DNA of 64,000 nucleotides from Octopus vulgaris (lineage: Eukaryota). Within the stretch, counting starts at the first letter, position 1. The number at the start of each line of letters is the position of its first letter. Under the pieces are notes generated by a model that was not told where the DNA came from, made no database searches, and saw nothing but the letters and a program-made list of their open reading frames with translations. The position numbers were made by a program, and so were the translations under genes. This document shows positions 4,760 to 62,493 of this stretch, piece by piece. Where the stretch lies: contig OX597817.1 of NCBI GenBank assembly GCA_951406725.2, positions 140,058,001 through 140,122,000 of the forward strand, read 5' to 3'.

Positions 4760-4906
4760 CCGGTTAACTAACACGAACGAAGAGGAAGCTATTCCTGTTA
4801 GCCAATAGGAGAATAGCTACAGTTTCAACAGATCATCCACGTGCTACACTTTTGTTTTTTCCCCTTTTCTAGTATATCTGTAAGTTTATATTTACGGACT
4901 CTCCAA

Positions 4907-5138
4907 GGCGGCAAGCTGGCAGAATCGTTAGCACGCCGGGCGAAATACGTAGCCGTATTTCGTCTGTCTTCACGTTCTAAGTTCAAATTTCGCCGAGGTC
5001 GACTTTGCCTTTCATCCTTTCGGGGTCGATAAATAAAGTACCAGTTACGCACTGGGGTCGATGTAATCGACTTAATCCCTTTGTCTGTCTTTGTTTGTCC
5101 CCTCTATGTTTAGCCCCTTTGTGGGCAATAAAGAAATA
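4907..5138 (+). mobile_element. SINE family B, full-length monomer
   Basis: GGCGGCAAGCTGGCAGAATCGTTAGC ... GTTCAAATT ... GTCGACTTTGCCTTTCATCCTTTCGGGGTCG ... AAAGAAATA; near-TSD TATATTTACKGACTCT (4885-4900 / 5139-5154). Confidence 0.88.
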
Positions 5139-8731: not shown

Positions 8732-9960
8732 ATGACCAGAACCAACAGAATCGCCATGGTGAAATCCATAGCGGCGTGCGATAAGACTGGTCGCTGCTCT
8801 AAAATAGAACACTGCCCAGAAAATCACACCTGCCACATCTGTACGGAACCCGAAAATACGTTCCGTAATCGCTGGGTCGAATGTGGGACATGTCTCATCT
8901 CTGTCTGCCTCCAATGTGCCACGGACTTTCAGAAGATCCCAGGCCAAAAAAAGAGCCATCATAATGCTATGATGGATAGACTCTGGAAGATGGTTCAGCT
9001 TAAATCTTGGACTTTTCAGTGTCAGGCCTGCGTGCCTCCACAACCGACGATTGTGTCTCCCCTGCCACTCCCGTGGAGGAGGCGGAACAGCAACAGCAGC
9101 AACAACAAAATCAACCACAACCAGAGCAGCAGCAACAACAACAACAACAACAACAGCAGCAGCAACAACTAGAGCAGCAGCAGCAGCAACAACAAAATCA
9201 ACCACAACCAGAGCAGCAGCAACAACAAAATCAACCACAACCAGAGCAGCAGCAACAACAACATCAACAACAACAACAGCAACAACAAAATCAACCACAA
9301 CCAGAGCAACAGCAGCAACAACAACAACACCAATTGACCAGTGCGGTTCTTGCAGAACTGCAACAATCGATCTGTGCTTTAAAAGGGGAAGTAGCAGGAA
9401 TAAAAGCAACCATTCAGGTTGGACTCCACAATGAGGGGTCTTATCGGAATGCTCTGCTAAAGAACCTCCCTGTACCTGTACCTCTTGTCGCATTTAAGAC
9501 CGCGGATTCTGCCACCCATGAAGTCATTGCCATTGGGGTGCCAGAAGACATGGCTGATCTTCAGGCTTTTGCTGCCAACTCAGCCAAAGACCTAGGCTGC
9601 GTTCCCCCAACGGGTGCTATCCGCCTTGGACGACCTGGCCCAAAACCTAGGCTCATCAAGTTGTCTTTTACGGACCCCACTGAGGCAACCTCTTACCATC
9701 TGGCCTCAGTTAAAGCTGGGCGGGAAAATCGGACCACCTTCCGAACACGCCCAGGCTTACCGTCCGATGTACGTCCGAAGCTACGTGTAGTGGCTTCCCT
9801 GAATAGGAACTCAGCTCTACAGGAAAGCTTCAGTCTTCGGGAAGATGGACAAATCTGGAGATTTGTCAAGACTGCTGAAACGTGGAAGAGAGATACCAGC
9901 TGGTCTGAGTGCTCTCTACCCACAATAACTAAAAAGACTACAGCAACTCAGGGAAACTAA
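8732..9960 (+). CDS. LINE ORF1p: PHD-type Cys-rich finger, poly-Q tract, coiled coil, RRM-like region; one frameshift near 9059-9062
   Basis: CHIC..WVECGTC..CLQC..FQCQAC in ORF 8732-9172 joins ORF 9007-9960 (IAIGVPED, RLGRPGPKPRLIKLSF) if one C is added to a C4 run. Confidence 0.8.
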
Positions 9961-12782
9961 GCCAGAACAACCTGCCATCCTCTACACACCATCATAAACT
10001 GCGAGCAGGGTACAAATTGTTGTCCTTAAATGCTCGCAGTTTATGCAACAAAATACATTTGTTCAACGCCTACGTCAGAAGTGTTGACCCTGACTTCATC
10101 ACTGTCACGGAAACATGGGCGCATTCCTTACTCTGTGATGGGGTTTTCAACATTACGGGGTACAACCTCTTCCGTAAGGACCGCACTAACCGCCGTGGTG
10201 GTGGTGTGATGGTCTACGTTCGTTCAAATTTTTTGGTAATTCCTTGTGCCGATTTGAACGAATCACAAGAAGAAGTTTTTTTCTGTGACGTGCGTATGAC
10301 CATGTCAACACTCCTGCTTGGCGTTGTTTATCGTCCCCCAAGTTACCATCGGGACACACAGCTTTGCAATGTCCTCCGAGCTGCTGCCAGGAAAACAGCC
10401 ACTTATGTGTTTATTGCAGGCGATTTCAATCATCCTGAGATCGATTGGGAGACCTTCCATTGGCCACAGAGTGCAAACGATTTTGTTGAGCTTGTGCTGG
10501 ACTCAAACTGGTCACAAGTAGTCACCTCTCCAACAAGAGGCGACAACACCTTGGACCTGCTCTTCACCACAACTCCTGAAGCAGTTATCAATTGCACTAC
10601 GGAGGAACCTCTAGGTGACTCTGATCATGCTATGATCATCGCCAATCTGGCTCTTGCGGGCAACAAAAACCTGAACCATCTCCAATCTGCTTCCTTCGAT
10701 TGGAAGAGAGCAGATTGGAACCTGTACCACACTGAACTACAGCACCCAAACTGGCGTGAATTCTACAACTCTGGAGATGTGAATACTATACTCCAGAGTA
10801 TCCTGGACTCAATATGGGCAGCATGTGCAGCATCAGTGCCACGTAAACAAAAAAAGAAGAACCGCCCCAAAAGGGCAATTTGGGAAACTTCAGCGGTCCG
10901 ACTTGCCAGGAGGGAACGTCGGACTGCTGAACGGGAATACAGGTTGCATAAATCAGACACCAACAGGAAGAAGCGGAATAAATCCTCCAACCATCTCAAG
11001 CAAGTGACAAAAAAAGCAGTGCTTGAATTTGAACAGTGCATAGCAGCCAATCCTGACAGCAAGGTTTTCTGGAAATATGTGCACTCAAAGCAGAGACCTC
11101 ACTCTCCAGTGGGCCCTCTTCGCAACCCTCACACAAACCAGATCACTGACGACCCCAAGGAATGCGCAGAACTCATTGCCGAGTGCTATGCAAACATATT
11201 CACTGTTGAAAGTCAAAATGTACCATCTTCACCATCACTAACAGCAAACTCCATAACAACTATGGAATTTACACCTGCAATGCTGCGACGTCACCTTCAA
11301 AATAAGCGCAACTATGCCTCCCCTGGTCTCGATGGAGTTACATACCTGCTTCTCAAACGTGGCAGGCACTTCCTTTTACACCAGCTTTCTATTTTCTTCC
11401 AGTACTGTCTCAACAATGGTGCTACTCCGGAGCAGTGGAAAACTGCCAGTGTCATTCCTCTGTTCAAAAAGGGCGACCGCACATCACCTGTCAACTATCG
11501 CCCAGTCAGTCTCACTAGCTGTATTGCAAAACTGATGGAATCGTGTGTCAGAGAAACACTCTGGAACTTCTGGAGCTCTCACAGTCTCATCCGACCCTCA
11601 CAATATGGATTTGTCCCTAACTCCAGCTGCAGTGACCAGCTTGTCGAGTTCCTTGAGGACATTACTCAGATTACTGACAGTGGCTCATGGGTGGATGTTG
11701 TCTACCTTGACTTTGCTAAGGCTTTCAACTCTGTGCCACACAAAAGGCTTATGGTGAAACTCTCTGCAATGGGTGTGGGGGATGACCTTTTTAACTGGTT
11801 GAAATCCTTCATCCTCAGCCGAAAGGAGGTAGTCACAGTTCTAGGACAGCACTCTACACCATATGAGATGTCATCGGGTGTACCACAGGGATCTGTCCTT
11901 GGTCCCCTCTTGTTTGTGGCATACATTAACGACATAGATGCCAATTTAAAGAATGCCACAGTATTGAAATATGCAGACGACATCAAGCTGTACCTTGAAA
12001 TCAAGAGGACAGATCCTGATGTCTACAACTCTTTCCTGCAATCAGACCTAGACACAATGCAGCAATGGATCACAGACTGGCAACTGAAACTGGCTGTGGA
12101 CAAGTGTACCACCATGCATTTTGGGAGAAAAAACCCTGCGTTCACATACTCCCTCCACAACACTGATATCAAGAAATCCTCTTGTGAGCGTGACCTAGGC
12201 ATCACTGTCAGCAGTGATTTGCGTTGGTCAAAGCATATCTCTAAGATTGTCAGGAAGGCCGAGGGTGTCTTGGCATCACTCAGCAGGTCTTTTGTTAGCC
12301 GCTCTCCAGCCATCTATTTAAAACTGTATACAGCTATGGTACGACCACACTTGGAATTTGCATCATCAGTTTGGAACCCCTATCTTGCACAGAACATTGA
12401 CCTCCTGGAATCTGTCCAGAGACGTGCAACCAAACGCATACCCTCCATCAGACACCTACCATATTCTGAGCGCCTTGTTTCCCTGGGCATGGATTCACTG
12501 AAGCTCCGGCGTTTGGCGACGGACTTGGTAAACACCCACAAAGTTATCAACCACCTCACCAACAACAACACTGAACACCTTTTTGATCTCCATGTGTCTA
12601 ACACACGTGGACATGCCAACAAAGTCAGAAAACAATACAGCTCCCATGACTTTCGGAAACATTTTTTCACGCTCAGAGTTGCTGAAGCATGGAATAAACT
12701 GCCTGCGTCAGTTGTTGACTGCCATGACACTGCATCTTTTAAGGCCCTCATGCTTTCCGAAATCCGCCGAAACTACACCTGA
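9951..12782 (+). CDS. LINE ORF2p: apurinic-like endonuclease + reverse transcriptase
   Basis: Uninterrupted frame with LNARSL, VTETW, YRPP, GDFNHP, LDLL, SDH (APE) and NYRPVSL, YLDFAKAF, GVPQGSVLGPLLF, YADD (RT); frame open from 9933, first ATG lies inside the APE domain. Confidence 0.95.
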   Translation, partial: GKLSQNNLPSSTHHHKLRAGYKLLSLNARSLCNKIHLFNAYVRSVDPDFITVTETWAHSLLCDGVFNITGYNLFRKDRTNRRGGGVMVYVRSNFLVIPCADLNESQEEVFFCDVRMTMSTLLLGVVYRPPSYHRDTQLCNVLRAAARKTATYVFIAGDFNHPEIDWETFHWPQSANDFVELVLDSNWSQVVTSPTRGDNTLDLLFTTTPEAVINCTTEEPLGDSDHAMIIANLALAGNKNLNHLQSASFDWKRADWNLYHTELQHPNWREFYNSGDVNTILQSILDSIWAACAASVPRKQKKKNRPKRAIWETSAVRLARRERRTAEREYRLHKSDTNRKKRNKSSNHLKQVTKKAVLEFEQCIAANPDSKVFWKYVHSKQRPHSPVGPLRNPHTNQITDDPKECAELIAECYANIFTVESQNVPSSPSLTANSITTMEFTPAMLRRHLQNKRNYASPGLDGVTYLLLKRGRHFLLHQLSIFFQYCLNNGATPEQWKTASVIPLFKKGDRTSPVNYRPVSLTSCIAKLMESCVRETLWNFWSSHSLIRPSQYGFVPNSSCSDQLVEFLEDITQITDSGSWVDVVYLDFAKAFNSVPHKRLMVKLSAMGVGDDLFNWLKSFILSRKEVVTVLGQHSTPYEMSSGVPQGSVLGPLLFVAYINDIDANLKNATVLKYADDIKLYLEIKRTDPDVYNSFLQSDLDTMQQWITDWQLKLAVDKCTTMHFGRKNPAFTYSLHNTDIKKSSCERDLGITVSSDLRWSKHISKIVRKAEGVLASLSRSFVSRSPAIYLKLYTAMVRPHLEFASSVWNPYLAQNIDLLESVQRRATKRIPSIRHLPYSERLVSLGMDSLKLRRLATDLVNTHKVINHLTNNNTEHLFDLHVSNTRGHANKVRKQYSSHDFRKHFFTLRVAEAWNKLPASVVDCHDTASFKALMLSEIRRNYT

Positions 12783-18148: not shown

Positions 18149-18290
18149 GACGAACTGGAACGTGAAACTCCGAGTAACAGCTTTTGTTATATTTCTGCTG
18201 CTTTTAAATAAAGCATATTACTCTACCTCTGGTATTTGAGTACTCTTTTTCCCACCTTGTTTCGCATTTATGTGCTTACTCCGGTATATA
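18144..18290 (+). mobile_element. Penelope-like pseudo-LTR remnant with hammerhead-like motif
   Basis: TGT-CCGACGA-AC(TGGAAC)GT-GAAACTCCGAGT-A-ACA directly after (TA)n; AATAAA downstream. Confidence 0.45.
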
Positions 18291-18296
18291 TATACT

Positions 18297-18509
18297 CTGT
18301 TACTCTGTTACTTGTTTCAGTCATTTGACTGCGGCCATGCTGGAGCACCGCCTTTAGTCGAGCAAATCGACCTCGGGACTTATTCTTGGTAAGCCCAGTA
18401 CTTATTCTATCGGTCCCTTTTGCCGAACCGCTAAGTGACGGGGACGTAAACACACCAGCATCGGTTGTCAAGCAATGCTAGGGGGACAAACACACACAAA
18501 CACACACAC

Positions 18510-18530
<21 letters not shown>
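18297..18530 (-). mobile_element. SINE family C, 3' half
   Basis: Reverse complement of 31170-31378. Confidence 0.85.
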
Positions 18531-18573
<43 letters not shown>

Positions 18574-18593: not shown

Positions 18594-18909
18594 AGCTTAA
18601 ACCTTATGAGCGATCGGTGTATATCGACCAAAGAAAATAGTGTGATATTGTGACAAATAAGCTTTCAACGGAAAAAAAGCGAGTTTTTACTACGCATGGG
18701 AATCGAAGCCATACCTCTTATATTCGTGATAAACGTGTTCATCGACTACACCAGTCTCCCCACTCACTTCTTTCCGTTAGATTTAAGAGTTACAATTTTG
18801 CAAATATAAGAGGTGTGAGTTTGATTCCCATGCATACTAAAATACCACTTTTTTTTTCGTCGTGTGCTTGTTAGACTAATTCATGATGATCGCTGAAAAG
18901 TTTTAAGCT
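18594..18909. mobile_element. Putative TIR element containing a tRNA-like A/B-box segment
   Basis: 22-bp TIR with 3 mismatches (18594-18615 / 18888-18909); minus strand TGGTGTAGTCG ... GCTTCGATTCC at 18690-18760. Confidence 0.45.
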
Positions 18910-18922
18910 AAAATTATTTTAA

Positions 18923-19808
18923 TTTCTTTACTGCCCACAAGGGGCTAAACACAGAGAGGACAAACAAGGACAGACAAACGGATTAAGTCGAATACATCGA
19001 CCCCAATGCGGAACTGGTACTTATTTAATCGACACCGAAAGGATGAAATGCAAAGTCGACCTCGGCGGAATTTGAGCTCAGAACGTAGTGGCAGACGAAA
19101 TACCTATTTCTTTACTACCCACATGGGGCTAAACACATTGAGGACAAACAATGACAGACAAACGGATTAAGTCGATTAGATCGACCCTAGTGCGGAACTG
19201 GTACTTATTTAACCGACCCCGAAAGGATGAAAGGCAAAGTCGACCTCCGCGGAATTTGAACTCAGAACGTAGTGGCAGACGAAATACCTATTTCTTTACT
19301 ACCCACATGGGGCTAAACACATTGAGGACAAACAAGGACAGACAAACGGATTAAGTCGATTACATCGACCCCAATGCGGAACTGGTACTTATTTAACCGA
19401 CCCCGAAAGGATGAAAGGCAAAGTCGACCTCGGCGGAATTTGAGCTCAGAACGTAGTGGCAGACGAAATACCTATTTCTTTACTACCCACATGGGGCTAA
19501 ACACATTGAGGACAAACAAGGACAGACAAACGGATTAAGTCGATTACATCGACCCCAATGCGGAACTGGTACTTATTTAATCGACACCGAAAGGATGAAA
19601 GGCAAAGTCGACCTCCGCGGAATTTGAACTCAGAATGTAGTGGCTGACGAAATACCTATTTCTTTACTACCCACATGGGGCTAAACACATTGAGGACAAA
19701 CAAGGACAGACAAACGGATTAAGTCGATTACATCGACTCCAATGCGGAACTGGTACTTATTTAATCGACACCGAAAGGATGAAAGGCAAAGTGGACCTCG
19801 GCGGAATT
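18923..19808 (-). repeat. Tandem array of headless SINE family B units, period 184 bp (4 full + 1 partial)
   Basis: TTTCTTTACT recurs at 18923, 19107, 19291, 19475, 19659. Confidence 0.95.
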
Positions 19809-19829
19809 ACAAAAACGTAACAGAAATTT

Positions 19830-20040
19830 AGTCACATGTGGGCAAATATGATTAGATAATTGTGTCGCTTTTCTTTTGTTCCAGTGCCTAAAGCTCAAAG
19901 TGTGGTTATTGAACCTGGCCTTGAAATTACCCTCTGTAAGTGTAAACTCTATAACCACTAAAGACACCGTTTCGACGAAGAAATACGTGGGCCTTACAGA
20001 GGGTAATTTCAAGGCCAGGTTCAATAACCACACTTTGGTC
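19830..20040. pseudogene. Penelope-like GIY-YIG endonuclease fragment in inverted arrangement
   Basis: Plus strand KYVGLTEGNFKARFNNH; minus strand LTEGNFKARFNNHTLSFRHWNKRKATQLSNHI; 45-bp perfect inverted repeat. Confidence 0.75.
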
Positions 20041-20241
20041 CCCTAAAGAAAACAGATTGAACATGCTTTCTATGTTATGTCCCAAGAAGAATTTATATAT
20101 TTTTATATATTTTTTATGTATTTTTATATAATTTTTGTGACGAAAAGTGCGAGCGATGTGTGAGTACGCAGGCAAGCAGAGTTATAACACAGTAATTTCC
20201 CTTTATTTAACGGTATTTTTTCATAGCGTTTTCAAATAGCC

Positions 20242-20304
20242 AGATAACCGAAGAGATGGTGTTGTGGATTTCCACTTCGGCATCTGAAACTCAGAGTTTT
20301 ATCT
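20242..20304 (+). ncRNA. Hammerhead-like motif with long helix II (U4C variant)
   Basis: AGATAA-CCGAAGA-GATG..GTGGA/TCCAC..CATC-T-GAAACTCAGAGT-T-TTATCT, ~200 bp 3' of the GIY-YIG fragment. Confidence 0.55.
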
Positions 20305-20329
20305 TGACTACCGAGTAATGTAACATATT

Positions 20330-20385
<56 letters not shown>

Positions 20386-20461
20386 TATAAGTGTGTGTGT
20401 GTGTGTGCGTGCGTGCGTGCATGCGTGGGTGTTTCTGTATACTTATATGTATATATGTAAA

Positions 20462-20690
20462 GGCGGCGAGCTGGCAGAAACATTAGCGCGCCGGGCGAAA
20501 TGCTTAGCGGTATTTCGTCTGTCGTTACGCTCTGAGTTCAAATTCCGCCGAGGTCGACTTTGCTTTCATCCTTTCGGGGTCGATAAATAAAGTACCAGTT
20601 TCGCACTGGGGTCGATGTAATCGACTTAATCCGTTTGTCTGTCCTTGTTTCTCCCCTCTATGCTTAGCCCCTAGTGGGCAGTAAAGAAAT
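20462..20690 (+). mobile_element. SINE family B, full-length monomer
   Basis: Homology to 4907-5138. Confidence 0.88.
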
Positions 20691-21259
20691 ATATAGGTAT
20701 ATATGTACACACACACACGCACACACAATTGATCCTTGAGAGCTCTTTAATGCTCCATATATTCCGTTAAAACTACTTTAACTACTATAAATATTTAGTC
20801 ATATTTTCTATCTTTCAAAAAAAGCCAGGTCTTAATACAACCGACGACCATATTGCGTCTTGTAATTGAAACAAAATGATTAAATAATCAACCGTGTGTG
20901 GTTCGCCTTCTTCTTTAAGTAGGCTGCAGAAATCCCAGTTGTACATTTATTACTGTTAAGTGTTTTAAGTATAATGAAACAGATCATGGCTCTCAGAAAA
21001 CTGGACTGTTGTGCTCAGCATTTGCGAGTCTCTCAGAGCATTGGGAGTCGGTAGTTTTCTCTTTTTTATCAATCAATTAGAAATAATATTGATTAGGTTA
21101 AACACATGCATGCACACACGCGCACATGCACACGTATATGCGTACATACAAATGTACACGCACGTGCAAACTTGCGCACACATACATGCATACATGTGCA
21201 CACACTTGTACACATATATGCACTCATACATATGTACACTTAAATATATTGAAATATAT

Positions 21260-21675
21260 ATTTCTTTACTACCCACAAGGGGCTAAACACGTAGGGGACA
21301 AACAAGGACAGGCAAACAGATTCAGTCGATTACATCGACCCCAGTGCGTAACTGGTGCTTAATTTATCGACCCCAAACGGATGAAATGCAAAGTCGACAT
21401 CGGTGGAATTTGAACTCAGAACGTAGCGGCAGACGAAATGCCTATTTCTTTACTGCACACAAAGGGGCTAAACATAGAGGGGACAAACAAGGACAGACAA
21501 ACGGATTAAGTCGATTACATCGACCCCAGTGCATAACTGGTGCTTAATTTATCGACCCCGAAAGGATGAAAAGCAAAGTCGGCCTCGGTGGAATTTGAAC
21601 CCAGAATGTAACGGCAGACGAAATACGGCTACGCATTTCGCCCGGAGTGCTAACGTTTCTGCCAGCTCGCCGCCT
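21260..21675 (-). mobile_element. SINE family B dimer (full unit + headless unit) with a single TSD
   Basis: 184-bp period (21261 / 21445); TTAAATATATTGAAATATAT at 21240-21259 and 21675-21694. Confidence 0.9.
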
Positions 21676-21689
21676 TAAATATATTGAAA

Positions 21690-22080: not shown

Positions 22081-22744
22081 CAATATTTTTCCTGTTCTGG
22101 AATACGGCAAGCAACAACAAAACACATCCTCAACAACAAAGCAGCACTCATACTATGTACATAAAATACAATGCTGAACTCACTTGGAGACACGAAGCTG
22201 CATAGAGGGAGAAAGGAAAAAAATCTTTAAATGGTACAGGAAGAGAATCTCGAAAGGGTAAAAGAAGCGAAAGTGCTCGAAGTTAATGGACTGCCTTTTG
22301 TTTCTTTGGAATTTGTTAACGTATGATGGATGTGTGTGTGTATGTGTTTTTGGTTTTTTGTTGTTATTGGGATTTAACACCATGTTGGCTTTGATCGTGC
22401 AGACTCATGACTAAAGGCGTTCCAGTCGAGATCATCCTGTCTTTTTTCATGTATAGCGTACCTAGGTCAATAATAGACAATGTGTTCGTTGCATTGATAT
22501 AGCAAGGTGTTATTTGCGGCACAAAGCCGACAGTTTTCAAGTTGTGGGGCAGGAGGTGTTAGTCAATTACATCAACATCACTACTTGACTGGTACTTTAT
22601 TTTATCGACCTCGAAAAACTGGAAAGCATCTACAGAATTTGAACTTAGAAATGCAAAGAGCTGAACCAAATGCCATAATGAACTTTTTCGACATTCTAAA
22701 GATGCTTCCCTAACAACAACAACAACAACAAAAACAACAACAAT

Positions 22745-24678
22745 AAGTGAGCTTAACAGTACAGGGTATAGTTTTAAAATTGGCGACAAGAAAATAAGTC
22801 ATCTATTTTATATGAATGATTTAAAAAGGCCTTCGACAGAATACCGTATTTGTGGATCTTGAAATCGATGGATATCTTCAGAATCTCTCTGGTGATTTCT
22901 AGCTTCCTGAAACACAACATGTCAAAGTGGAATACGAATCTCCAACTGTACCACTCTGTGCCTACAAAAAAAAAGTAATAATATCAACTGCCGCATTTTC
23001 CAAGGTGACTCACTTTCAACTTTAATTTTCTGTATAGCCCTAATACCCCTTACAAGTGAACTTAACAGAACAAGGTATGGATATAAAATTGGCGACAAGA
23101 AAATAAGTCATCTATTTAAATGGACGACTTAAAACTCTGTGGCAAAGACAATAATGAGCTTGAAGACCTACTACGTACTGTGAAAGCTTTCAGTGATGAC
23201 ATTGAGATGGAATTTGGTCTTCATAAATATGCCAAGGCCACTTTCCGGAGAGGGAAACTGAAGACTTCGCATTCGGTAGTGTTGGATGTTGACACAATCA
23301 TGAAAGAACTCGAGCAGGAACAAACTTACAAATACCTCGGAATAAATGAGGGCTCTGGAATTCAATATGCAAGTATGAAAGTGAAGATCAGGAAGGAGTG
23401 TTACAGGAGAGTTTGAGCAGTCCTAAAATCCGAGTTAAATGCACGTAACTCCGGTTGTTATTAACAGTTTCAATGTTGAACTGGAATATGAGTGAAATAA
23501 GGAAGATTGACAGGAAAATCCGTAAGCTGCTGACTTGATATAAGATGCACCACCCAAAGGCAGACGCAGATCATCTTTGTCTACACAGAGCTCAAGGATG
23601 TCGAGGCTTGATCCATTTTGAAATCTGTTACAAAACCACCACAAATGGACTGGCAAAATATTTTGAAACATCTAACAACTGAATGCTAAAGCTCGTTGAA
23701 AACCATGAAAGAAGGGAGAAGCTTCATTCTGCTATGAATGAGAACAAAACATTTTAAAGTGAGTTTATAATTCCCAGGTTGAACTACATGAGGGAAGTGC
23801 AGCAACTGTAGTTGCAAAATAGGTTAAATCAATAGCAAAGCAAAACGCGCTTGAACAATCGGCTGATAAGTGAGAAGAAAAACCTCTGCATGGCAAATAT
23901 GTGGCCCGTAGCAACCCAGCCGATGTAGACCAGAAGCACACCCATCAGTGGCTACAGAGCTCAGGACTAAAGGCTGAGAGTGAAGGCTTTATCTTGGCTG
24001 CTCAATATCAGAGCTTACTGTCCCGGAACTATAAAGCCAACGTGATGAAAAATGTAGACCCAAAGTGCCGATACTGCAACGATGGGATTGAGACAGTGGA
24101 CTACCTAGTAAGTACAGACCGGACCGTCAAAACAAATAAACCAGATATTGTTGTGAAAGATCAAAAGAATAAAGTCTATTTATTGATCGAAACGAGCATA
24201 GCCTGTGGCTATAATATCTCGGCAAAGGAAATTGATAAGCTCAGAAGATATAAAGATTTGCTAATCGAAATCGAAAAGATGTGGCATCTCAAGACGGTTA
24301 CAATATCAGTGATTGTAGGAGCACTTGGAATGATCAAGGAAGGAACTGAAAATTATTTAAGAATCATCCCTGGCTTAGCATCCATGCAGGAAGTGCAAAA
24401 GATTGTCTTAATTGCTACGTCACACGAATTGAGAAGTGAATTGTTACAGAATTTTCTTTCTCCTTTTCCTATTTTTCTTTGTTTACTTTTTCTTTTATAG
24501 TTTTCCCTTTCTCATTGCCTTTCTTCCACCTTTTCTCTATCACACGTCTATGTAAATGAACTATCTGATGTGCTTATTTTAATGGCCTACCAATGTATAC
24601 AATGCGCTTCTCTGCCCTAGGTGTCAGGAAGACACTCGGCAAGAAATGGAAACACTACTGAAAGAAGATGATAATGAA

Positions 24679-24756
<78 letters not shown>

Positions 24757-30954: not shown

Positions 30955-31378
30955 GGCGCAGGAGTGGCTGTGTGGTAAGTAGCTTGCTAACCAACCACAT
31001 GGTTCCGGGTTCAGTCCTACGGCGTGGCATCTTGGGCAAGTGTCTTCTGCTATAGCCCCGGGTCGACCAATGCCTTGTGAGTGGATTTGGTAGACGGAAA
31101 CTGAAAGAAGCCTGTCGTATATATGTATGTATATATATATATATGTATATGTGTGTGTGTGTGTGTTTGTGTGTCTGTGTTTGTCCCCCTAGGATTGCTT
31201 GACAACCGATGCTGGTGTGTTTACGTCCCCGTCACTTAGCGGTTCGGCAAAAGAGACCGATAGAATAAGCACTGGGCTTACAAAGAATAAGTCCCGGGGT
31301 CGATTTGCTCGACTAAAGGCGGTGCTCCAGCATGGCCGCAGTCAAAATGACTGAAACAAGTAAAAGAGTAAAAGAGTA
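30955..31378 (+). mobile_element. SINE family C, full length (tRNA head, CORE-like segment, internal TA/TG microsatellite)
   Basis: A box TGGCTGTGTGG, B box GGTTCAGTCC, CTTGGGCAAGTG CORE-like motif, GTAAAAGA repeated tail; resembles described octopus CORE-SINEs (inference). Confidence 0.88.
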
Positions 31379-32341
31379 TATATATATATATATATATATA
31401 ATACACACACATATATATATAAATTGCTGTCAACATCATTGTTGCTGTTGTTTTGTTTTATATTAGCTGTTGCAAGTCTCTGCCAGAGACCGCCAATAAT
31501 AGAGACCTCGAATAACAGCAGTTTGGACTTTTTACTGTGGGTGTTATTTATGATTAGCGATGATATATTGCAGGGAAAGGAGAGCGAATGCCGTGAATGA
31601 AAATCTTGTTGAATTTGTAATGTTTTCGATTTTGAAAAAGAATCAACCATTCTCTGGTTGATGATGCGCAATGACTTTGAAACTAGTCTCTGGTTGCTGG
31701 CTTTGCTATGTGGAGGTGCTTGTCTCCCCTTTTGAAAACATAAGGACACAAAAAATGTGTCAAGGCCAACTGGAAACGATGTTTCCTAGGGCTAAATAAC
31801 AGTAGCATTCTTTCCTTTCATGAGACTGTCACATTAAGTTGACAGCATACTATCACTTTATCGTGCTGCGACTGCATAAATCTCTCTGAGAGATTTAGAA
31901 ATGTATTATTTCTATTTTCACAATTTATGGTGTTAAACAATTGCTAGGATATTTTTTTACAGGTGTCATCATCATGGGTCCATCAATTTTACCATAGCTA
32001 AAGGGCCGAAATCTATTCCATATTCAGTTACAGTATAAGCAGTAATAATTCAAAGTCAGCTGGAGAAACGTATTTACTCTACTTTGTATTTTTATTTCGA
32101 AACTGATAAAAATGATAAAATTCCTATACAACATAAACGCATTTCAGTCTAAACTGGACTTCTTCAGTGTGATGGCGACGACGACAACCAAAATCGATAC
32201 AGTTTATCAAATAAGAAAAGTAAAGAATGAATATACTCGTAGAACCATTTTCCCATTTCAGAGAGGTAGACAGGTAAACAGACAGATAGATAGATAGATA
32301 GAGAGAGAGAAGAAGCGAGATAAAGACACAGACAGAGAAAG

Positions 32342-33169: not shown

Positions 33170-33390
33170 TTGTCTTTTATATTCTTAGTCATAAGTCTTC
33201 GGCTATACTGGGGCATATCGCTTTTATGAGAATTTTAGTTGAACAAATCGATCCCAGTACTTATGTTTTTGGAATTCTGGTACTTATTCTATCGGTCTCT
33301 TTTGCGGAACCGCTAAGTTACGGGAACATAAACACTCCAACACCGATTGTCAAACAGTGGTGGGCCCAAAATGAGCACACACACACACAC

Positions 33391-33464
<74 letters not shown>

Positions 33465-33625
33465 ATATATATGTACGACGGACTTCTTTAAGTTTTCGTC
33501 TAGCAAATCCACTCAGAATACTCTGGTCGACCTGAAACCATAGAAAACACTTTTTCAGGACGCCACGCAGTAGAATGAACCCGAAATCATGTGGTTGAGA
33601 AACAAACGTCTTAACAAACAGCCAC
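33170..33625 (-). mobile_element. SINE family C, decayed
   Basis: Reverse-complement homology to 30955-31378. Confidence 0.8.
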
Positions 33626-34015
33626 TTCTGTTTGAAAAAAAAAAATGGAAAACTGATTCTCTTAGTAGAGTTCTTCATTTTTTTGAGATGAAAAAAAATT
33701 TTGTGTGAATGAAAATTTATGATTTTATTGAGAGATAAACCAATCTAAATTAGGTTTTATAAAAGAAACAAACGAGAAACAGAAAGAAGTTCACACTCAT
33801 AGAAGTGCACGAATGCATATATGCATATATGCACATATACATAGCAGCACCAAAAGCCATATTTACTTCAGTACAATACAATCGCCCACTTTTTGTACCG
33901 AAACATCAGTAAAGTAATATATTTAAACATCTTATCTTACTTTCACACCGGAATATAAGGCCATACAAGCCCAGTTTTTAATCTAAAATTTCTTTTATAT
34001 GTGAGAGATACGGTC

Positions 34016-35559: not shown

Positions 35560-36218
35560 CTAACAAAATAATATATAAAATATATGCATATTTAGATACA
35601 TATATGTACATACCTACATCTATATGTACATATACATGCATGTATAGGTACAGAACACCAAAAAAAAAAAAACGTCGAACACAATGAGAAACAAAACCAT
35701 GGAAACGGACTTTTTGCAAACAACGAAGAAAGAGAGTACAAGACATACAACACAAGGAATATTCCCCTTCTTCAGCTGCACCTGCTTCGTCTACTCCGTC
35801 TATATACTTGATGGTCTACTTCGTATATATATATGATGGTTGCTACCGTCGTTTTCGACGTATGAGTGTTTAAAGGAGAATATGTGTGTGTGTGTGTGTG
35901 CATTAGAAATACAATCAAAGCAAATCTTTCAATGTGTGTGGAAATGGAAAACATGACGTTTCGAGCCTAAGTTCGTCAAGGTATAAAACAGAGAAATGAA
36001 GAACAAAAAAAAATGTTTGTGTAAAGTTTACGAGTCATGGAAATGATTTATGGCGGAGGTGGGTAATTTGATGTGTGCGACTGCAAAAAACTGGGACTGG
36101 GAATGTGCAACGAACAAAATGTCTGTAATACATGAATGTAGTATAGAAGGTAGGATAATCGACCGGTGTGAGTATATTAGTATATTATATTATGTGAGTA
36201 TATTATATTATTCACAAG

Positions 36219-36450
36219 GGCGGCGAGCTGGCAGAATCGTTAGCACGCCGGGCGAAATGCGTAGCCGTATTTCGTCTGCCGTTACATTCTGAGTTCAAAT
36301 TCCGCCGAGGTTGACTTTGCCTTTCATCCTTTCGGGGTCGATAAATTAAGTACCAGTTACGCACTGGGGGTCGATGTAATCGACTTAATCCGTTTGTCTG
36401 TCCTTGTTTGTCCCCTCTATGTTTAGCCCCTTGTGGGTAGTAAAGAAATA
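36219..36450 (+). mobile_element. SINE family B, full-length monomer
   Basis: Homology; GTGAGTATATTA on both flanks. Confidence 0.88.
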
Positions 36451-39513: not shown

Positions 39514-40020
39514 CTACTCCATGGATCTGCAAGTGCAATGATTTATTCTGTTCGTATTGACAATATATCACACCTTAGTCCGGCACAAATAACATTCTAA
39601 TGTCTCCTATAAATTAGAATACCGTTCAGTGTTTCGATTTTCAAACAATTGGTGGCAGACGACATCAAATTATCGATTAGGAGGAGTTGAAAGATAACCA
39701 CTGTCCATCGATTCACAAATTAGTAATCTAAGCTGTATGTTTATTAACTGTCAGCCTCAAATATTCGAGAGTGTATGTTAATGGCATTCAACTACACAAT
39801 TATATGAGTAGGAATTTTAATCCAAGAAGTGCTTTATTGACGGCGCCGCAAGAGCAGAACAATGAACAGTGAAACTTCAAAGTTACTATCAACCTTTTAC
39901 TTAATTTGAATAAGTACGTAGTTCCTTGTAGGTTGTGTATATATATATATTTGTGTGTGTGTGTGTGTGTGGGGGGTATGTATGTGTGTATGTGTATGCA
40001 TGTATGTATGTATTATATTG

Positions 40021-40247
40021 ACGGTGAGCTGGCAGAAACGTTAGCACGCCGGGCGAAATGCTTAGCGGTATTTCGTCTGCGTTACGTTGTGAGTTAATTC
40101 CGCCGAGGTCGACTTTGCCTTTAAACCTTTCGGGGTCGATAAATTAAGTACCAGTTACGCACTGGGGTCGATATAATCGACTTAATACCTATGTCTGTCC
40201 TTGTTTGTCCCCTCTGTGTTTAGCCCCTTGTGGGTAATAAGGAAATA
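40021..40247 (+). mobile_element. SINE family B monomer
   Basis: Homology to 20462-20690. Confidence 0.85.
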
Positions 40248-46851: not shown

Positions 46852-48560
46852 ATGGTTAGTGAGAGCTGTGCGTGCCATGTACAGGGACGCTGTTAGTAAG
46901 GTGAGGGTTGGCAACGAGTACAACGAAGAATTCCGGGTGGAGGTTGGGGTCCACCAAGGCTCAGTCCTCAGTCCCCTCCTATTTATCATAGTCCTCCAGG
47001 CAATAACGGAGGAATTCAAGACAGGATGCCCCTGGGAGCTCCTCTATACTGATGACCTTGCTCTAATTGCTGAATCACTATCAGAACTCGAGAAGTTTCA
47101 GGCGTGGAAGCAAGGATTAGAATCGAAGGGTCTTAGAGTCAATCTAGCTAAAACCAAAGTCCTAATAAGTAGGAAGGTAGACAAATCTCAAACGCCTTCA
47201 GGTAGATGGCCCTGCTCGATCTGTAGAAAAGGCGTAGGTAGGAACTCTATAAGATGCACCAAGTGTAAGCTATTGACACATAAGAGGTGCAGCAATGTCA
47301 AAGGAAGGCTAACTGGGAAGATAGTTTTTGTAGGTGGCAGATGCTCTGGTGCAATAAACACTGAAAATGCGCAGAGACCATCTTCCGCCACATTCCAGGG
47401 AGAAAAACTTGAAATAGTTGATAGTGACCGTTACCAAGGTGACCAAGTTAGTAGCGGGGGTGGGTGTGCCGAAAGTGTAACTGCTAGAGTAAGAATAGCC
47501 TGGACAAAGTTCAGAGAGCTCTTACCTCTGCTGGTGACAAAAGGCCTCTCGCTCAGAGTAAAAGGCAGACTGTATGACGCATGTGTGCGAACAGCCATGC
47601 TACATGGCAGTGAAATATGGGCCGTGACTGCTGAGGATATGCGTAAGCTCGCAAAAAATGAAGCCAGTATGCTCCGTTGGATGTGTAATGTCAGTGTTCA
47701 TACTCAACAGAGTGTAAGTGCCTTGAGAGAAAAGTTGGACCTAAGAAGCATCAGATGTGGTGTGCAAGAGAGGCGTCTACGCTGGTATGGACACGTAGTA
47801 AGAATGGATGAAGATAGTTGTGTGAAAAAATGCCACACCCTAGCGGTTGAGGGAACCTGTGGAAGAAGTAGACCCAGGAAAACCTGGGACGAGGTGGTGA
47901 AGAACGACCTTCGAACTTTAGGTCTCACCGAGGAAATGAGCAGAGACCGAGACCTTTGGAAGTATGCTGTGCGTGAGAAGACCCGGCAGGACAAGTGAGG
48001 CCATAACCCATGGCCCCTACCTGGGACGTAGTCAGTCCACCTGTGCATACCTTCCTTATTGGGACACATAACTCTACTTGTGAAGACCTGTTGAGGCAAG
48101 TGAAAATCAAAAATCAAAGAATCAAATCAAAATCGAAATCGATCAACATCAATGGAATTTGTAGTTTTGTGGTACCAGTGCCGGTGGCACATAAGAAGAC
48201 CATCCGAACGTGGCCGTAGCCAGTACCGCATCGACTGGCCTCCGTGCTCGTGGCACGTAACAAACACCATCCGATAGTAGCCGTGCCAGCCTCGCCTGGC
48301 CTCCGTGCCGGTGGCACGTAAAAAACACCATCCGAGCATGGCCGTTCGCCAGCCTCGTCTGGCACCTGTGTCGGTGGCACATAAAAAGCACCCACTACAC
48401 TCACGGAGTGGTTGGCGTTAGGAAGGGCATCCAGCTGTAGAAACACTGCCAGATCTGACTGGCCTGGTGCAGCCTTCGAGCTTCCCAGGCCCCAGTTGAA
48501 GCGTCCAACCCATGCTAGCATGGAAAGCGGACGTTAAACGATGATGATGATGATGATGAT
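46852..48560 (+). mobile_element. 5'-truncated RTE-clade LINE (RT with inserted Cys-rich finger; long 3' UTR; (GAT)n tail)
   Basis: GVHQGSVLSPLLF, YTDD, GLRVNLAKTK, RLRWYGHV, RPRKTW; stop at 47998; tail 48540-48560. Confidence 0.92.
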
Positions 48561-50479: not shown

Positions 50480-53400
50480 TATTATTATTATTATTATTAT
50501 TATTATTACTTTTTTTTTTTCTTCTTTCAAATTTTCTTCCATTTCTTGCCGAGTGTCTTCCCGACTCCTAGGGCAAAGAAACTCATAGTGTATATTGGTA
50601 GGCCATTAAACCAAACTCAGTAGTTCGTTAATTTTTTTAAATTTTTTTTTTTTTAAGTTAAATTAAAATACGAGCAGCAACAGTTCTCACATCAACAATG
50701 CTCTTCTCAATACGTGTGATGTACCAGTTAAGACGATTTTTTGCACTTCTTGCAGGGATGGTAAGCCAGGGATCATTCTCATATAATTTTCGGTTCCCTT
50801 CTTGATCATTCCTAGTGCTCCTACGATCACTGGTATTGTAACCGCCTTGAGATGCCACATTTTCTCAATTTCAATGAGTAGGTCTTTATATTTTCTGAGC
50901 TTGTCAAACTCTTTCGCTGATATATTATGATCACAGGGGATGCTCATGTCGATCAATAAGCAAACTTTATTGTTTTGGTCTTTCACAACAATATCTGGTT
51001 TATTGGCCTTGATGGTTCGGTCTGTATGTACTGGAAAGTCCCACAGAATGGTTACATTTTCTCCTTCAGTTACAGCCTCAGGGTGGTGATTATACCACTT
51101 GTCGGCAGTTTTGATATTGTAATGCCGACTTATTAGCCAGTGGAGATATTGGCCAACTCTGTCATGTCTTAATTTATACTCCACTGGTGCTAAGACTTTA
51201 CATCCAGAGATTAGGTGGTCCACTGTTTCAATCATGTCGTTGCAGAATCGGCATTTTGGGTCTGCTCCATTTTTCATCACATTGGCCTGGTAGTTCCGGG
51301 TTAATAGGCTTTGGTCTTGAGCAGCCAGGATGAAACCTTCGCTCTCTGCTTTTAGCCCTGAGCTCCGCAGCCACTGATGGGTTTGCTTCTGGTCAACATC
51401 AGCTTGTTTGCTGCGGGTCACATATTTGCCGTACAGAGGTTTCTCCTCCCACCTATCAGCCAATTGCTCGTGCGCTTTTTTCATTGCCATCATTTTCACC
51501 TTCTTTGCAACAATAGTTGCCGTACTTCCCTCGGGTTGTTCAGTTTGGGTATCCTGCACGAGATCAATAGCAATTTTTTTGCTTTCCTTGATGATAGAAT
51601 GAAGCTTCTTTCGTCTCTCGTGATTTTCCACGAGCTTTAGCATCCAGTCATTCGATATTTCGAGATATTTGGCCAGTCCAATTGTGGTTGTTTTGTAAGC
51701 TAGTTCAAATTGGATCAGGCCTCGACCTCCTTGGGCTCTGGGAAGGTAAAGGCGATCTACGTCTGCCTTTGGGTGGTGCATCCTATTACAACTCAGCAGC
51801 TTGCGTATTTTTCTATCTATATTCTTTACTTCACTCATATTCCAGTTCAACACATTGTAACTATAAGTAACAACTGGAACTGCTAAGGAATTTATAGCTA
51901 ACACCTTGTTACGTGCATTTAGTTCAGATTTCAGGACTGCACGAACTCTCCTATAACATTCCTTCCTGATTTTCTCTTTCATGCTTGCATGCTGAATACC
52001 AGAGCCTTCATTTATCCCTAAATATTTGTATGTCTGTTCTTGCTCAAGCTCTCTTATGACTGTGTCAACATCTAACACGACTGAATTTGTGGTCTTCACT
52101 TTCCCTTTCTGGAAAGTGGCCTTGGCACACTTCTCAAGTCCAAACTCCATCCCGATGTCATCGCTGAATGCTTTCACGGTGCGCAATAGGCCTTCAAGTT
52201 CATTATTGTCTTTACCATAAAGTTTTAAGTCATCCATATAAAATAAATGGCTTATTTTTTTATTGGCAATTTTATACCCATACCCTGTTCTGTTTAATTC
52301 ACTTGTAAGGGGTATTAGGGCTATGCAGAATATTAAAGGTGAAAGTGAGTCACCTTGAAAAATTCCACAGTTGATGTTTATATTTTCTGAGGCAAGTACT
52401 CCATTAGAGTGGTGTAATTTGAGATTCGTATTCCACAACGACATATTGTGCTTCAGGAAGTTTGAAATCACAGGGGAAATTTTAAAGATGTCCAGCGATC
52501 TCAAGATCCATGGATGCGGTATACTGTCGAAGGCCTTTTTATAGTCAATCCATGCGGTGCTGAGATTTCTGCGCTTGTTGTGACAGTTCTCAAGGATCAT
52601 ACGATTGATTAGCAGTTGATCTTTGCATCCGTAAGAGCCTCGGCGGCACCCTTTTTGTTCAATTGGGAAAATATCGTTCTTCTCCATGAATGCATATGTT
52701 TTCTCCGCCAGGATAGATGTTAGGATTTTATACGTGGTGGATAGACAGGTTATAGGCCGATAGTTTTTTGGAAGGTTGGTTTCGTTATTCTTTGGGAGTA
52801 GGTAAGTAATGCCACTTGCTAACCATTCAGGTGTTTTCTTTGGGTCTCTCAAAATTCCATTGAGCAGCTGAACTAGCTTACCGTGTGCGCACGGGAGCGA
52901 TGCGAGCCAGAAATTCGGCACCCTATCTTTACCGGGGATTTCCAATTATGGGCCTTCGTGAGTGCCTTTCTTAGGTCTGCTATTGTGATGTCTTCCCATG
53001 CTTGTTGTTGTAAATTTTGGTAGGATCCTTCAGTTTGTATAATCCAGTCTGCATTTATGTTGTACGTCTTCTTGTCACTCCAAATCCTTTCCCAAAAGTT
53101 TTGAACTTCTTCCATGGGAGGGGGTCTTTAACGGTTACTTTCTCCTTCCCTATTTCTCTGTAGAATTTTTTGGCATTGGATGTGAACAGCTTATTTTGCT
53201 TGTAAAACTTGTTTCTCTTCTCAAATCTTCGTATTCTTTGGGCTTTTGCTTGGACTTTTTGTTTCAGCGTTTCTTTTATTGATATCAGTTCTTCTCTTGG
53301 TGAGGATCCAAATTTTCTCTTCATCTTTCTTCCTGTTCTGGATCTTACATCATTTCCACATATTAGTTCATTTAATATTGATATTTCCCCTCTCATAAAT

Positions 53401-54484
53401 TCAATCTCTTTTTCAATTTTACTTCTCCAGGTTTGATTTCTTCCCAGGTTTTGTTTTCTTTGTTTTTTCGGGGGCATACAGCTGGTTTCAATTGCCCTAG
53501 CAGAAGCGTAAATAATTTCATTTAACTCAGTAAAATCAGGTTTTAATTCTCGTATTATTTCATTTGTTACATAGTTGCCAATTTGGATTTGTTTTTTATT
53601 TTGGTTTGTATTTGAGAGTTTATGAAGCGGTTCTCTATCATTCATACTTGTATGTCTTACAACTTCAAGCGTATTCAGGATTTTCTGCCTCATTTCTGCC
53701 ATAGACTCTCTGTGTTCTTCAGCAAATGCGAGATCTTCAGTTACTGTTGTTTTTTCGTTTTCCTGGCTATCTTTAACAGGTACAATAGAATTTCTTGTAT
53801 CTTCAGGCCTTTGCGTACTTTGGTCAGATGGCAGTCTTTCAATTAAGCCTCGTGGCGGGCTATACTGTTCATCTGATTCTTCATTTCCTTTGTGTCTTAT
53901 ATTTATGTCATTTTCCGTTGCGTGCTTGATCGCACTTATTTCACTGTCTGTGAGCCTGTTATTTCTAAAGATATCCCTCCTCACATTTGCTAATTTGTTC
54001 TCGTCCAAATAGGGCCTACTGTCTTGATTCCGTGTTCTCCATATACTGTAAGAGTTTGCGGTGTGTCTCTCTTGAGATGGCCTACCTAATGCATAGTAAT
54101 AAGCGTATATTACTTCTTTATACTCTTCTCGGGTCCATTTGTTCCGCTTACATTTTTCTTTCTGTGGTGGTTGTGGTGGTGAACTTGGAGGGCTCGAGTT
54201 GGGGGATTTCCCGTTCAAGTGACCATCCATGTCCGTATTCGGAGAAGAGTTTGTGCCAGTTGATGACTTTTCGATCCCAGGCTGGCTCTTCCCTGGGGGA
54301 CGCGCTTCCAGATTAACCATAGGACAAGCGATTTGGTATACTGATTTAGTTTTCCTTTTAGTTTCCAAAAACATTTTGGTGCTACGATAATGTTATCATT
54401 TTTTAGCTTTGATTGGCTCGTGGGGAGACGGCCATCATTGCCGTTACAATTATAATCGTACCATTATAGCAGCCGTAGTCGGCT
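50480..54484 (-). mobile_element. Apparently full-length R4/Dong-clade non-LTR retrotransposon
   Basis: Single long ORF with two frameshifts, 3' UTR, A-run and (TAA)n tail; TAA-like repeats also at the inferred 5' flank. Confidence 0.9.
50687..54374 (-). CDS. R4/Dong polyprotein: RT + CCHC knuckle + restriction-like endonuclease (frameshifts at ~53122 and ~52935)
   Basis: NYRPITCL, EQKG, DYKKAFDS, GIFQGDSLSP, YMDD, YKYLG, CRFC..HLISGC, RHD, KPDIVV..ID..K..KY; three ORFs join if one base is added in each of two G/C homopolymers. Confidence 0.93.
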
Positions 54485-56514: not shown

Positions 56515-56920
56515 TTCGTTTACTTGCTTCAGTTATTTGACGGGTCATGCTGAAGCACCGCCTTTTAGTCGAAGAAATCGACCCCTGGACTTGTTCTTTG
56601 TAAGCCTAGTACTTATTATATCGGTCCCTTCTGCCGAACCTCTAAGTTACGGGGACGTAAACACACCAATATCAGTTGCCAAGCGATAGTGGTGGTGATG
56701 GGGATACAAACATAGGCACAAACACACACACATAAGTATATGCATATATATACGACGGGCTTCTTTCAGTTTCCGTCTACCAAATCCGCTTGCAAGGCTT
56801 TGGTCGGCTCGAGGCTACAGTAGAAGGCACTTGCTCAAAGTGCAACGTAGTGAAACTGAACCTGAACCTGAAACCATGTGGCTGGGAAGAAGGCTTCTTA
56901 CCACACAGCCACACCGGCGC
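56515..56920 (-). mobile_element. SINE family C
   Basis: Reverse-complement homology to 30955-31378. Confidence 0.82.
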
Positions 56921-57445
56921 CTTTTACTCATTATTGCAACAGAACCTGAACTTATTCATACTACTTCTCATTGAGAGAAAACTTGTACTCACTTTTAACA
57001 TGGTACTCAACACTGAGAGAGAGGGAAAGAGTACCCAGTGTTATAACACTAATACGCTGCTCAACATTTGAATCCATCAGACGGGCGACAACTTCACAAA
57101 TGGCTAATTATAACAACAGTCTATTGCTTATTCATTTACTGCTCTCCCAGCCAATCATTTTCGTCATCAGCATAACCATCACTACGACACCCCTCCTCCT
57201 CCTCCTCATCATCATCATCATCATCACCATAAACCTAACCATCATCATCATTATTACCATCATTTCATCCTTCTCCGCTTCTTCCTATTACTCCCCCTCC
57301 TCCTCCTCTTCCTCCTCTCATTCTCCTCCTCCTCTTTCATATCTTTTTTCCAAAACAGCAACAAAAAAAATAATACTGATAGCAAACGAAGTACAATATT
57401 TCATTTTTATAGTTAATCGTGTTTATATTATTGTTTGAAATATTG

Positions 57446-59529: not shown

Positions 59530-59584
<55 letters not shown>

Positions 59585-59639
59585 ATAAACATATAAATTA
59601 ATATAAATGGGTGTGTATGTGTATCTATGTGTATGTGCC

Positions 59640-59840
59640 TTTGTGTCTGTGTTTATCCCACCACCACCTGATAACCTCTGTTGGTGTGTTTACATCTCCG
59701 TAACCTAGCGGTTCGGCAAAAAACCGATAGAATAAGTAGCACACTTTAAGAAGTCCTGACGTCGATTTATTTGACTAAAACCTTCGAAGACGGTGCTCCA
59801 GCATGACCGCAGTCAAATGACAGAAGCAAGTAAAAGATAT
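59640..59840 (+). mobile_element. SINE family C, 3' half
   Basis: Homology to 31170-31370. Confidence 0.8.
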
Positions 59841-61561: not shown

Positions 61562-61809
61562 ACGACAACAACAACAACAACAACCAGTCCTGAGATAGAA
61601 TGAAGTAATTTCCAATCGCAAATAATGAAGGAAAATTGAAACAAATATCACAGTTTAAAAGATTACATCTGGCAGACATTTTGGATGTCTTTGAATAACT
61701 CTTTATTGGTCTGTTTGCTTGTTGTTGTTGCTGATGTTGGTGACGTTTGTCGTTATTCTGGATCGTAATCTTGCTGTGATGTAAACAACAACAATGTCCA
61801 CCCCAATAT

Positions 61810-62195
61810 TTTACTGGTATTTATCGATCCCTAAGTGGGTGAAAGGCAAAGTCGACCTCGGCAGAATTTGAACTCAGGACGTAAAAACCCAGAAGAAATA
61901 CCTATTTCTTTACTACCCACAAGGGGCTAAACACAGAGAGGACAAACAAGGACAGGCAAACGGATGAAGTCGATTATATCGACCCCAGTGCGTAACTGGT
62001 ACTTAATTTATCGACCCCGAAAGGATGAAAGGCAAAGTCAACCTCGGCGGAATTTGAACTCAGAACGTAACGGCAGACGAACTACGGCTACGCATTTCGC
62101 CCGGCGTGCTAACGTTTCTGCCAGCCCGTCGCCTTCCCAGAAGAAATACCGCTAAGCATTTTGTTCGACACGCTATTGCGCCTGGCAGCTCGCGA
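61810..62195 (-). mobile_element. Young SINE family B copy (61903-62135) nested in an older family B copy, 15-bp TSD
   Basis: CCCAGAAGAAATACC at 61888-61902 and 62136-62150; old body to the left, old head to the right. Confidence 0.88.
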
Positions 62196-62493
62196 GACTG
62201 TGGAAGACCAGGACAGCAATTACTCGTGTGGAAATTGGTGCTCTTGGCACACAACACCTAAAATACTATCGGAGAGTAGAAAAGAGACGAATTATTCTGC
62301 ATTATACAAAAGAAAAACAACTACAAGGTATTTGGATCTGATAAAAATCCTAAAGCAGCGTCTATAATATGTAATAGGGACGCTTAAGATGCTAATAAAG
62401 ATGTTTCATTGGACACTGACGGACCCGGTATTTAAAATAAAAATTCTTTTTTATGTGGTGAGATGAAGGGGCTTACTATCTCTAAATGAATAA

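Follow-up and report, generated by a model that had tools for sequence, protein, structure and literature searches.

Why does a SINE lie inside an older relative at exactly the base where the units of a tandem SINE array begin? The question is raised by a locus near 61.9 kb of the window, i.e., the whole 64,000-nt stretch of Octopus vulgaris DNA analysed here, in which a SINE family of 233 nt is present in six full-length units. The fixed unit boundary of SINE-derived arrays is described but not settled in the parts of two reports drawn on here (PMC10702118, PMC11481361). A single window now presents an apparent precursor (the nested copy), an intermediate (the dimer) and a product (the array), all with the same boundary (Table 1). 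A favourite landing sequence in the head of the family itself most likely provides a simple origin for such arrays.

Table 1. Features of the SINE family in the window; element positions are counted from the first base of the 233-nt element.
Feature	Location	Strand	Basis
Solo young copy; 16-nt duplication (1 mismatch) with NN-TATTT start	4905..5138	+	sequence
Headless array; 4.8 units of 184 nt, every junction at position 50	18921..19820	-	repeats, profile
Solo young copy; 16-nt duplication (1 mismatch), 5' copy NN-TATGT, motif mutated in 3' copy	20460..20691	+	sequence
Dimer; full copy plus unit from position 50 in one perfect 17-nt duplication (NN-TATTT start)	21259..21676	-	repeats, profile
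Solo young copy; duplication of ~13 nt, misfit to motif	36216..36450	+	sequence, profile
Solo young copy in TATG microsatellite; duplication NN-TATGT, register ambiguous	40019..40247	+	sequence
Host SINE body; B-box-like motif and central domain to ~position 159, tail-less	61795..61887	-	alignment, profile
T5 run at position 249 from insert start, directly past the duplication	61883..61887	-	sequence
Target-site duplication, 3' copy, identical to 5' copy	61888..61902	-	sequence
Young full-length SINE insert, 233 nt	61903..62135	-	profile, alignment
B-box-like motif of insert, one base over consensus length	62049..62059	-	comparison with consensus
A-box-like motif of insert	62113..62123	-	read from sequence against polymerase III consensus
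Target-site duplication, 5' copy, 15 nt, starting at element position 50 (NN-TATTT)	62136..62150	-	sequence
Inner part of head hairpin in host; first duplicated base directly 3' of the 4-nt loop	62144..62161	-	prediction
Host SINE head, positions ~1-49, with A-box-like motif	62151..62197	-	local alignment, profile

Nested insertion into an older SINE

Two identical 15-mers (61888-61902 and 62136-62150), spaced by 248 nt, enclose 233 nt (61903-62135). An identical 15-mer 248 nt further on is found for 77 positions of the window, and a complexity filter leaves solely the pair at 61.9 kb. The enclosed sequence corresponds to positions 1-233 of the family profile (E = 2e-85; the profile was built from six sequences, the insert among them), differs from the majority of the six head-bearing units at 9 of 233 columns, and ends in AAAGAAATA without a repeat tail. 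On both sides, the host follows: its head piece (62193-62138) matches profile positions 7-62 (E = 5e-6) and its body piece (61901-61795) positions 51-159 (E = 5e-18). Without the repeat, head and body align to a young copy with scores of 46 and 97, the best of 1000 shuffles reaching 30 and 33, respectively, and both pieces are colinear relative to the young copy. The flanks therefore rejoin as one SINE, as the first-pass annotation had proposed.

Because 12 of the 15 duplicated bases are family sequence, the decisive check lies in the duplication of host-specific bases. Both copies of the 15-mer have T9 and G14, neither of which is seen in any of the 11 homologous 15-mers from young copies; thus, host sequence was duplicated, and the 15-mer is a true target-site duplication, again in line with the earlier reading. 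Its perfect identity beside an insert that is 3.9% diverged is not remarkable (P = 0.30). A nested insertion, with host sequence duplicated at both ends and the host halves colinear, is confirmed on this sequence evidence.

Compared with the young majority over positions 7-156, the host is equal at 115 of 145 columns and different at 30 (20.7%), and is therefore an older relative. Its homology to the family stops near position 159, beyond which the sequence scores below shuffles. This tail-lessness fits truncation and a different tail alike, and same-family status would be carried by the head and the central domain; the initial description of a SINE within its own family is borne out for these two parts only. 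The insertion puts 248 nt between the A-box-like and B-box-like motifs of the host. The T5 run behind the duplication is presumably a polymerase III stop, so the 61.9-kb locus would likely give no dimer transcript.

Character of the family

The family appears to be of the tRNA type, its A and B boxes being motifs recognized by eye against the consensus. Over 61810-62195 there is no open reading frame of 120 aa or more, ARAGORN reports 0 tRNA genes, and Rfam returns no tRNA match at E up to 5. The RNA fold of the whole insert is no better than those of shuffles (z = -0.48; 66 of 200 shuffled sequences fold equally well). A retrozyme or Penelope-dependent ribozyme repeat was rejected after an Rfam scan of 61700-62300, the sole match of which was an unrelated bacterial RNA (E = 0.56). 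The search for a partner LINE used the terminal 70 nt of the SINE, which at meaningful E match family copies alone within the window; the 3' ends of five LINE remnants in the window bear no likeness to the SINE 3' end. In genome_contigs, a collection without eukaryotic DNA, patterns from the tail and from the central domain each had 0 matches. As to the Meta, V or CORE superfamilies, a by-eye look revealed no resemblance to the bivalve alignments in the portion of the PMC4824008 supplement used here, with BivaMD-SINE1 as the Nin/Deu element compared.

Two head types exist, T45/G50 and G45/C50 (e.g., 62150 and 62155), which keep the loop-closing pair of a 13-bp stem; the leading GG of the shared junction is given by the G50 head type alone. 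An old family remnant (22517-22529, minus strand) possesses another tail with a short stem and a loop YTTGT like that of the young 3' end, on different stem bases. Such a stem-loop suggests a conserved recognition hairpin.

Target preference of the inserted copies

Duplications of 13-17 nt flank the element at six of the seven family loci, the headless array being the exception, and all six duplication-flanked elements stop at one and the same base without a repeat tail. The duplication begins with NN-TAT(T/G)T at four of the five non-nested sites, the 5' copy being used where the copies differ. This motif occupies 0.7% of the window positions and 5.6% (20/360) of those in the 40-nt flanks of the copies, so its enrichment has a binomial P of 1e-8 against the window background and of 5e-5 against the flanks; both values are optimistic because the motif was derived from these very sites. 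The misfits are the copy at 36.2 kb and the 3' flank of the array, leaving five of seven ends that fit, or four of seven on 3' flanks alone. The target preference is drawn from one window and six duplications.

A position matrix was trained on the five non-nested sites, the nested site being left out, with three column sets. The nested site ranks in the top 3.0%, 0.6% or 1.3% of the 127,984 8-mers of the window, and with each of the three sets it scores highest among the sense-strand 8-mers of the host. On the antisense strand of the host, one site outscores it in two column sets and two sites tie with it in the third. In an intact young copy, the position-50 site is the best sense site in two of the three sets and third with all eight columns. 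Upon leave-one-out scoring, one of the six sites ranks at 17% and the other five are within the top 1.3%. The leading GG of the nested site is present in none of the five other sites, all of which begin with T (5' copy).

Since other insertions prefer the same target, the coincidence of the nested site with position 50 requires a target preference and not necessarily self-recognition. On the assumption of about 10 homologous sites, one position-50 event among seven insertions has a probability of 2-8% by the motif alone, compared with 5e-4 under uniform insertion; three such events among nine insertions have a probability of 1e-4 to 1e-6 by the motif alone. In the nested and dimer targets, positions +3 to +8 are also the reverse complement of the last six bases of the element, which does not hold for the TATGT sites; no mechanism is supported by this complementarity.

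Shared junction of the dimer and the array

Element position 50 starts the nested duplication, the second unit of the dimer and units 2-5 of the array. The tandem periods in the window, 184 and 185, equal the element length minus the 49-nt head (233 - 49 = 184). Over 9+8 nt, the 3' junction of the nested copy is identical to all four array junctions, as first claimed, and differs by one base from the dimer junction. The insertion thus used exactly the array junction base, although the surprise attached to this in the first-pass annotation is lowered because the site is also the general target motif of the family.

The downstream units of array and dimer differ from the young majority at 14-16 of 184 columns (7.6-8.7%) and carry the tail. 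The host at 61.9 kb is 20.7% diverged and tail-less, with T5 behind the duplication, and this locus is therefore not the ancestor of the dimer or the array, which bears out the earlier view of an independent event at the same base. All four array junctions were copied from a single event, and the dimer is possibly kin to the array; hence, the window contains two to three independent junctions at one base, and not six.

The first unit of the dimer is of the C50 type, like the insert head, and the second of the G50 type, like the host head. This second unit carries 10 alleles that are absent from the six head-bearing units; one of them recurs in array units 2-5, another in unit 5 alone and a third in units 1-4. 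Two of the 10 private alleles are thus common with array unit 5 (chance P of about 0.03-0.06). In a tree of the 12 units, the sole supported group consists of the five array units, with the second unit of the dimer outside. From these sequences, dimer and array may have a common origin. The tail of the last array unit differs from those of units 1-4 at four columns. No target-site duplication was found at the array, and 19801-21250 upstream contains no head or duplication besides the known solo copy. The array, the opposite-strand solo copy and the dimer are clustered within 2.8 kb (18921-21676).

Origin of the site and the arrays

The site and the arrays are probably explained by a target preference that favours position 50, leading to nested insertion and subsequently to a dimer and an array expanded by unequal crossover. 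The nested insertion, the shared NN-TAT(T/G)T and the unit length are directly observed parts of this model. In ordinary target-primed retroposition, a LINE protein would nick the bottom strand two bases before the motif and copy the SINE RNA from a fixed 3' end. As the family head matches the motif best, on its sense strand, at position 50, same-orientation nested copies would tend to this base. The same event in a younger, tail-bearing host could explain both the dimer and the array, and three routes may lead from it to a head followed by two units. Polymerase III might read through from the insert head into the host remainder, the long RNA being copied as head, unit and unit. Alternatively, deletion or recombination between the two heads would give the same product, or the new strand might anneal to the host head during the insertion. 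These routes are indistinguishable in this window. Unequal crossover would then expand the dimer to an array.

A run of T4 or longer is a polymerase III stop signal. Such a run is absent inside five of the six full-length units, and without it polymerase III can read on from an insert head through the host remainder; the first unit of the dimer has a T4 run at position 105, which counts against read-through. The precursor-like structure at 61.9 kb would have persisted because its host is too diverged, tail-less and cut off by T5. The dimer fits the preferred model, since one 17-nt duplication surrounds a first unit of the insert type and a second of the host type, and the deviant tail of the last array unit is expected from local unequal crossover of a two-copy dimer. 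Because the motif alone is too improbable for three junctions, target preference with nested insertion needs, in addition, spread from a mobile dimer master. Such a master is weakly suggested by the two private alleles common to the second unit of the dimer and array unit 5; it is simple and has a precedent in dimeric SINEs (PMC10702118, in the portion used here).

RNA-guided homing is the most serious alternative and is considered unlikely. Here, dimer or array transcripts, which carry positions 50-65 behind the first tail, would pair with the nicked bottom strand at position 50 of a family copy and prime synthesis there; in an element without tail or terminator, the transcript carries the 3' flank of its source. 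The junction would then be self-propagating, and the "motif" would be an inherited target memory rather than an endonuclease specificity. In its favour, of the first 13 bases behind three of the four array junctions, 12 are those of the host duplication, and three loci per 64 kb have the same junction, which is unexpected from the motif alone if they formed in place; however, the mobile dimer master accounts for the repeated junction without homing. The common end of all six duplication-flanked elements, free of a variable tail, would likewise follow from homing, but the five non-nested copies are equally sharp at targets with just about five common bases. Motif type tracks head type (TATTT in three of four C50-type copies, TATGT in two of two G50-type copies), yet this split is not significant (Fisher P = 0.2), and the insert is nearer to a solo copy (95.3%) than to the first unit of the dimer (91.8%). 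An analogy is available in SART1Bm and, as cited there, in R1Bm (portions of PMC7265360 and PMC6007223): priming becomes more accurate when the RNA carries downstream, target-like sequence at its 3' end; both are autonomous site-specific LINEs (telomeric repeats, rDNA), unlike a SINE aimed at itself. It is more doubtful still that a tail-less SINE homes into its own head, each event splitting the A and B boxes of the host and seeding a SINE-derived satellite. If homing were true, the target choice of a non-autonomous element would be inherited via RNA, each copy handing on its own flank as a target preference.

Structure-directed nicking, in which the site is chosen at the loop edge of the 13-bp inverted repeat in the head, possibly as a cruciform, is improbable. 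The duplication begins immediately 3' of the 4-nt loop. Across seven heads, 95.6% of the 91 cells of the stem are paired, and at the loop-closing pair both sides have changed; this change, however, is one subfamily difference, and the count of such pairs is reached by 422 of 500 shuffles. The host hairpin, at -0.7 kcal/mol, equals the random median. A predicted DNA hairpin loop contains the nick at three of six targets; 31% of 3000 random positions and 28% of 905 positions matched for the motif lie in such loops, and a hairpin at the nick was rejected as a general rule over this background of about 30%.

Pure coincidence, i.e., insertion without any site preference, would draw on the density of the family (the 64 kb contain five older remnants, counting the host, besides six full-length and six array or dimer units) and on the selection of this window by a reader hunting oddities; with the uniform chance of 5e-4 given above, and with the same motif in other duplications, it is very improbable. 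Least probable of all is an origin without insertion, by recombination or gene conversion of an old copy with the dimer or by assembly error: similar 15-mers would flank any recombinant, as 12 of the 15 repeat bases are family sequence, but the host-only T9 and G14 stand in both copies and in none of the 11 young ones, and the insert has its own complete head with both boundaries exact.

Comparison with known systems

The nearest counterpart to the nested site is the single-nucleotide hotspot for Alu-into-Alu insertion, attributed to the best endonuclease site in Alu (Levy et al., PMC2836564, in the portion used here). Both systems show sense insertion into their own kind at one nucleotide, which is explained as the best endonuclease site of the element. 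According to the same portion, the Alu site lies after the A-rich linker, with poly(A) priming and a very short duplication, whereas the octopus site is situated between the A and B boxes, with no tail and a 15-nt duplication, and coincides with the array unit boundary.

Among tandem arrays, those of Scapharca broughtonii, of the type TSD-(SINE)n-TSD (PMC11481361, in part), are similar in that a mollusc tRNA-type SINE is surrounded by one duplication, with a head on the first unit and a common head truncation on later units. In the excerpts of that report, all units except the last are without part of the tail, in contrast to the full tail on every octopus unit, and unequal recombination between duplications is proposed with no nested precursor shown. 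In scaled reptiles, SINE-derived satellites (sSat) have units of 70-290 nt (PMC10702118, in part) and resemble the octopus array in a unit shorter than the parent SINE. The same excerpts invoke unequal recombination and mention same-locus insertion briefly, naming no fixed site.

Target choice is closest to that of RTE-related SINEs, which, in the parts of PMC6007223 and PMC13295347 drawn on, show a weak target preference and duplications that often start with T; weak preference and frequent T-first duplications are common to the octopus family. The RTE-related SINEs in these parts end in microsatellite-like 3' repeats and have a T stretch near -10, whereas the octopus SINE has no such tail and a motif at +3 to +7.

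In Octopus vulgaris, SINEs constitute 11.6% of the genome, and 893 of 900 recently active SINE families are unclassified, according to the portion of PMC13282606 used here. Since octopus SINE families are thus mostly unclassified, a target signature could help in finding the partner LINE. The words "nested", "dimer" and "satellite" are absent from the main text of that annotation, and the octopus family is unnamed in the parts of PMC4758252, PMC5804259 and PMC4824008 drawn on. Open papers yielded nothing on the nesting, the target motif or the arrays of this family, although the family itself may well be catalogued already. The parts are known kinds; new is the link of motif, nested copy and array boundary in one family and one window. 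The target motif can be counted in any octopus assembly.

Other elements in the window

The window is rich in microsatellites and contains several LINE remnants. A LINE at 9004-12782 (plus strand) has two long frames, the second of 949 aa with endonuclease and reverse transcriptase domains, and a TAT-repeat end; it looks young and may be CR1-like. Two related LINEs (50687-54392, minus strand, and 22822-24709, plus strand) are 78-83% identical in their common parts and have TAA-repeat ends; by their C-terminal motif, these may be of the Dong/R4 kind. For the LINE fragment at 46853-47995, the most identical proteins are from Octopus vulgaris (87%) and Octopus bimaculoides (85%), the best two among the 120 matches listed. 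Furthermore, a 61-nt unit is repeated 3.5 times at 48170-48392 (plus strand) in the 3' untranslated part of a LINE (85-87% to Octopus proteins).

Another SINE-like family, which has a TA/TG microsatellite inside it, is located at 18285-18550, 31118-31386, 33234-33659, 56516-56921 and 59554-59837. A portion of its body has weak similarity (E = 0.01-0.2) to the central domain of the 233-nt family. Just outside the array, a 53-nt inverted repeat (18672-18724 and 18803-18855, 81% identical) is possibly the remnant of a small DNA transposon.
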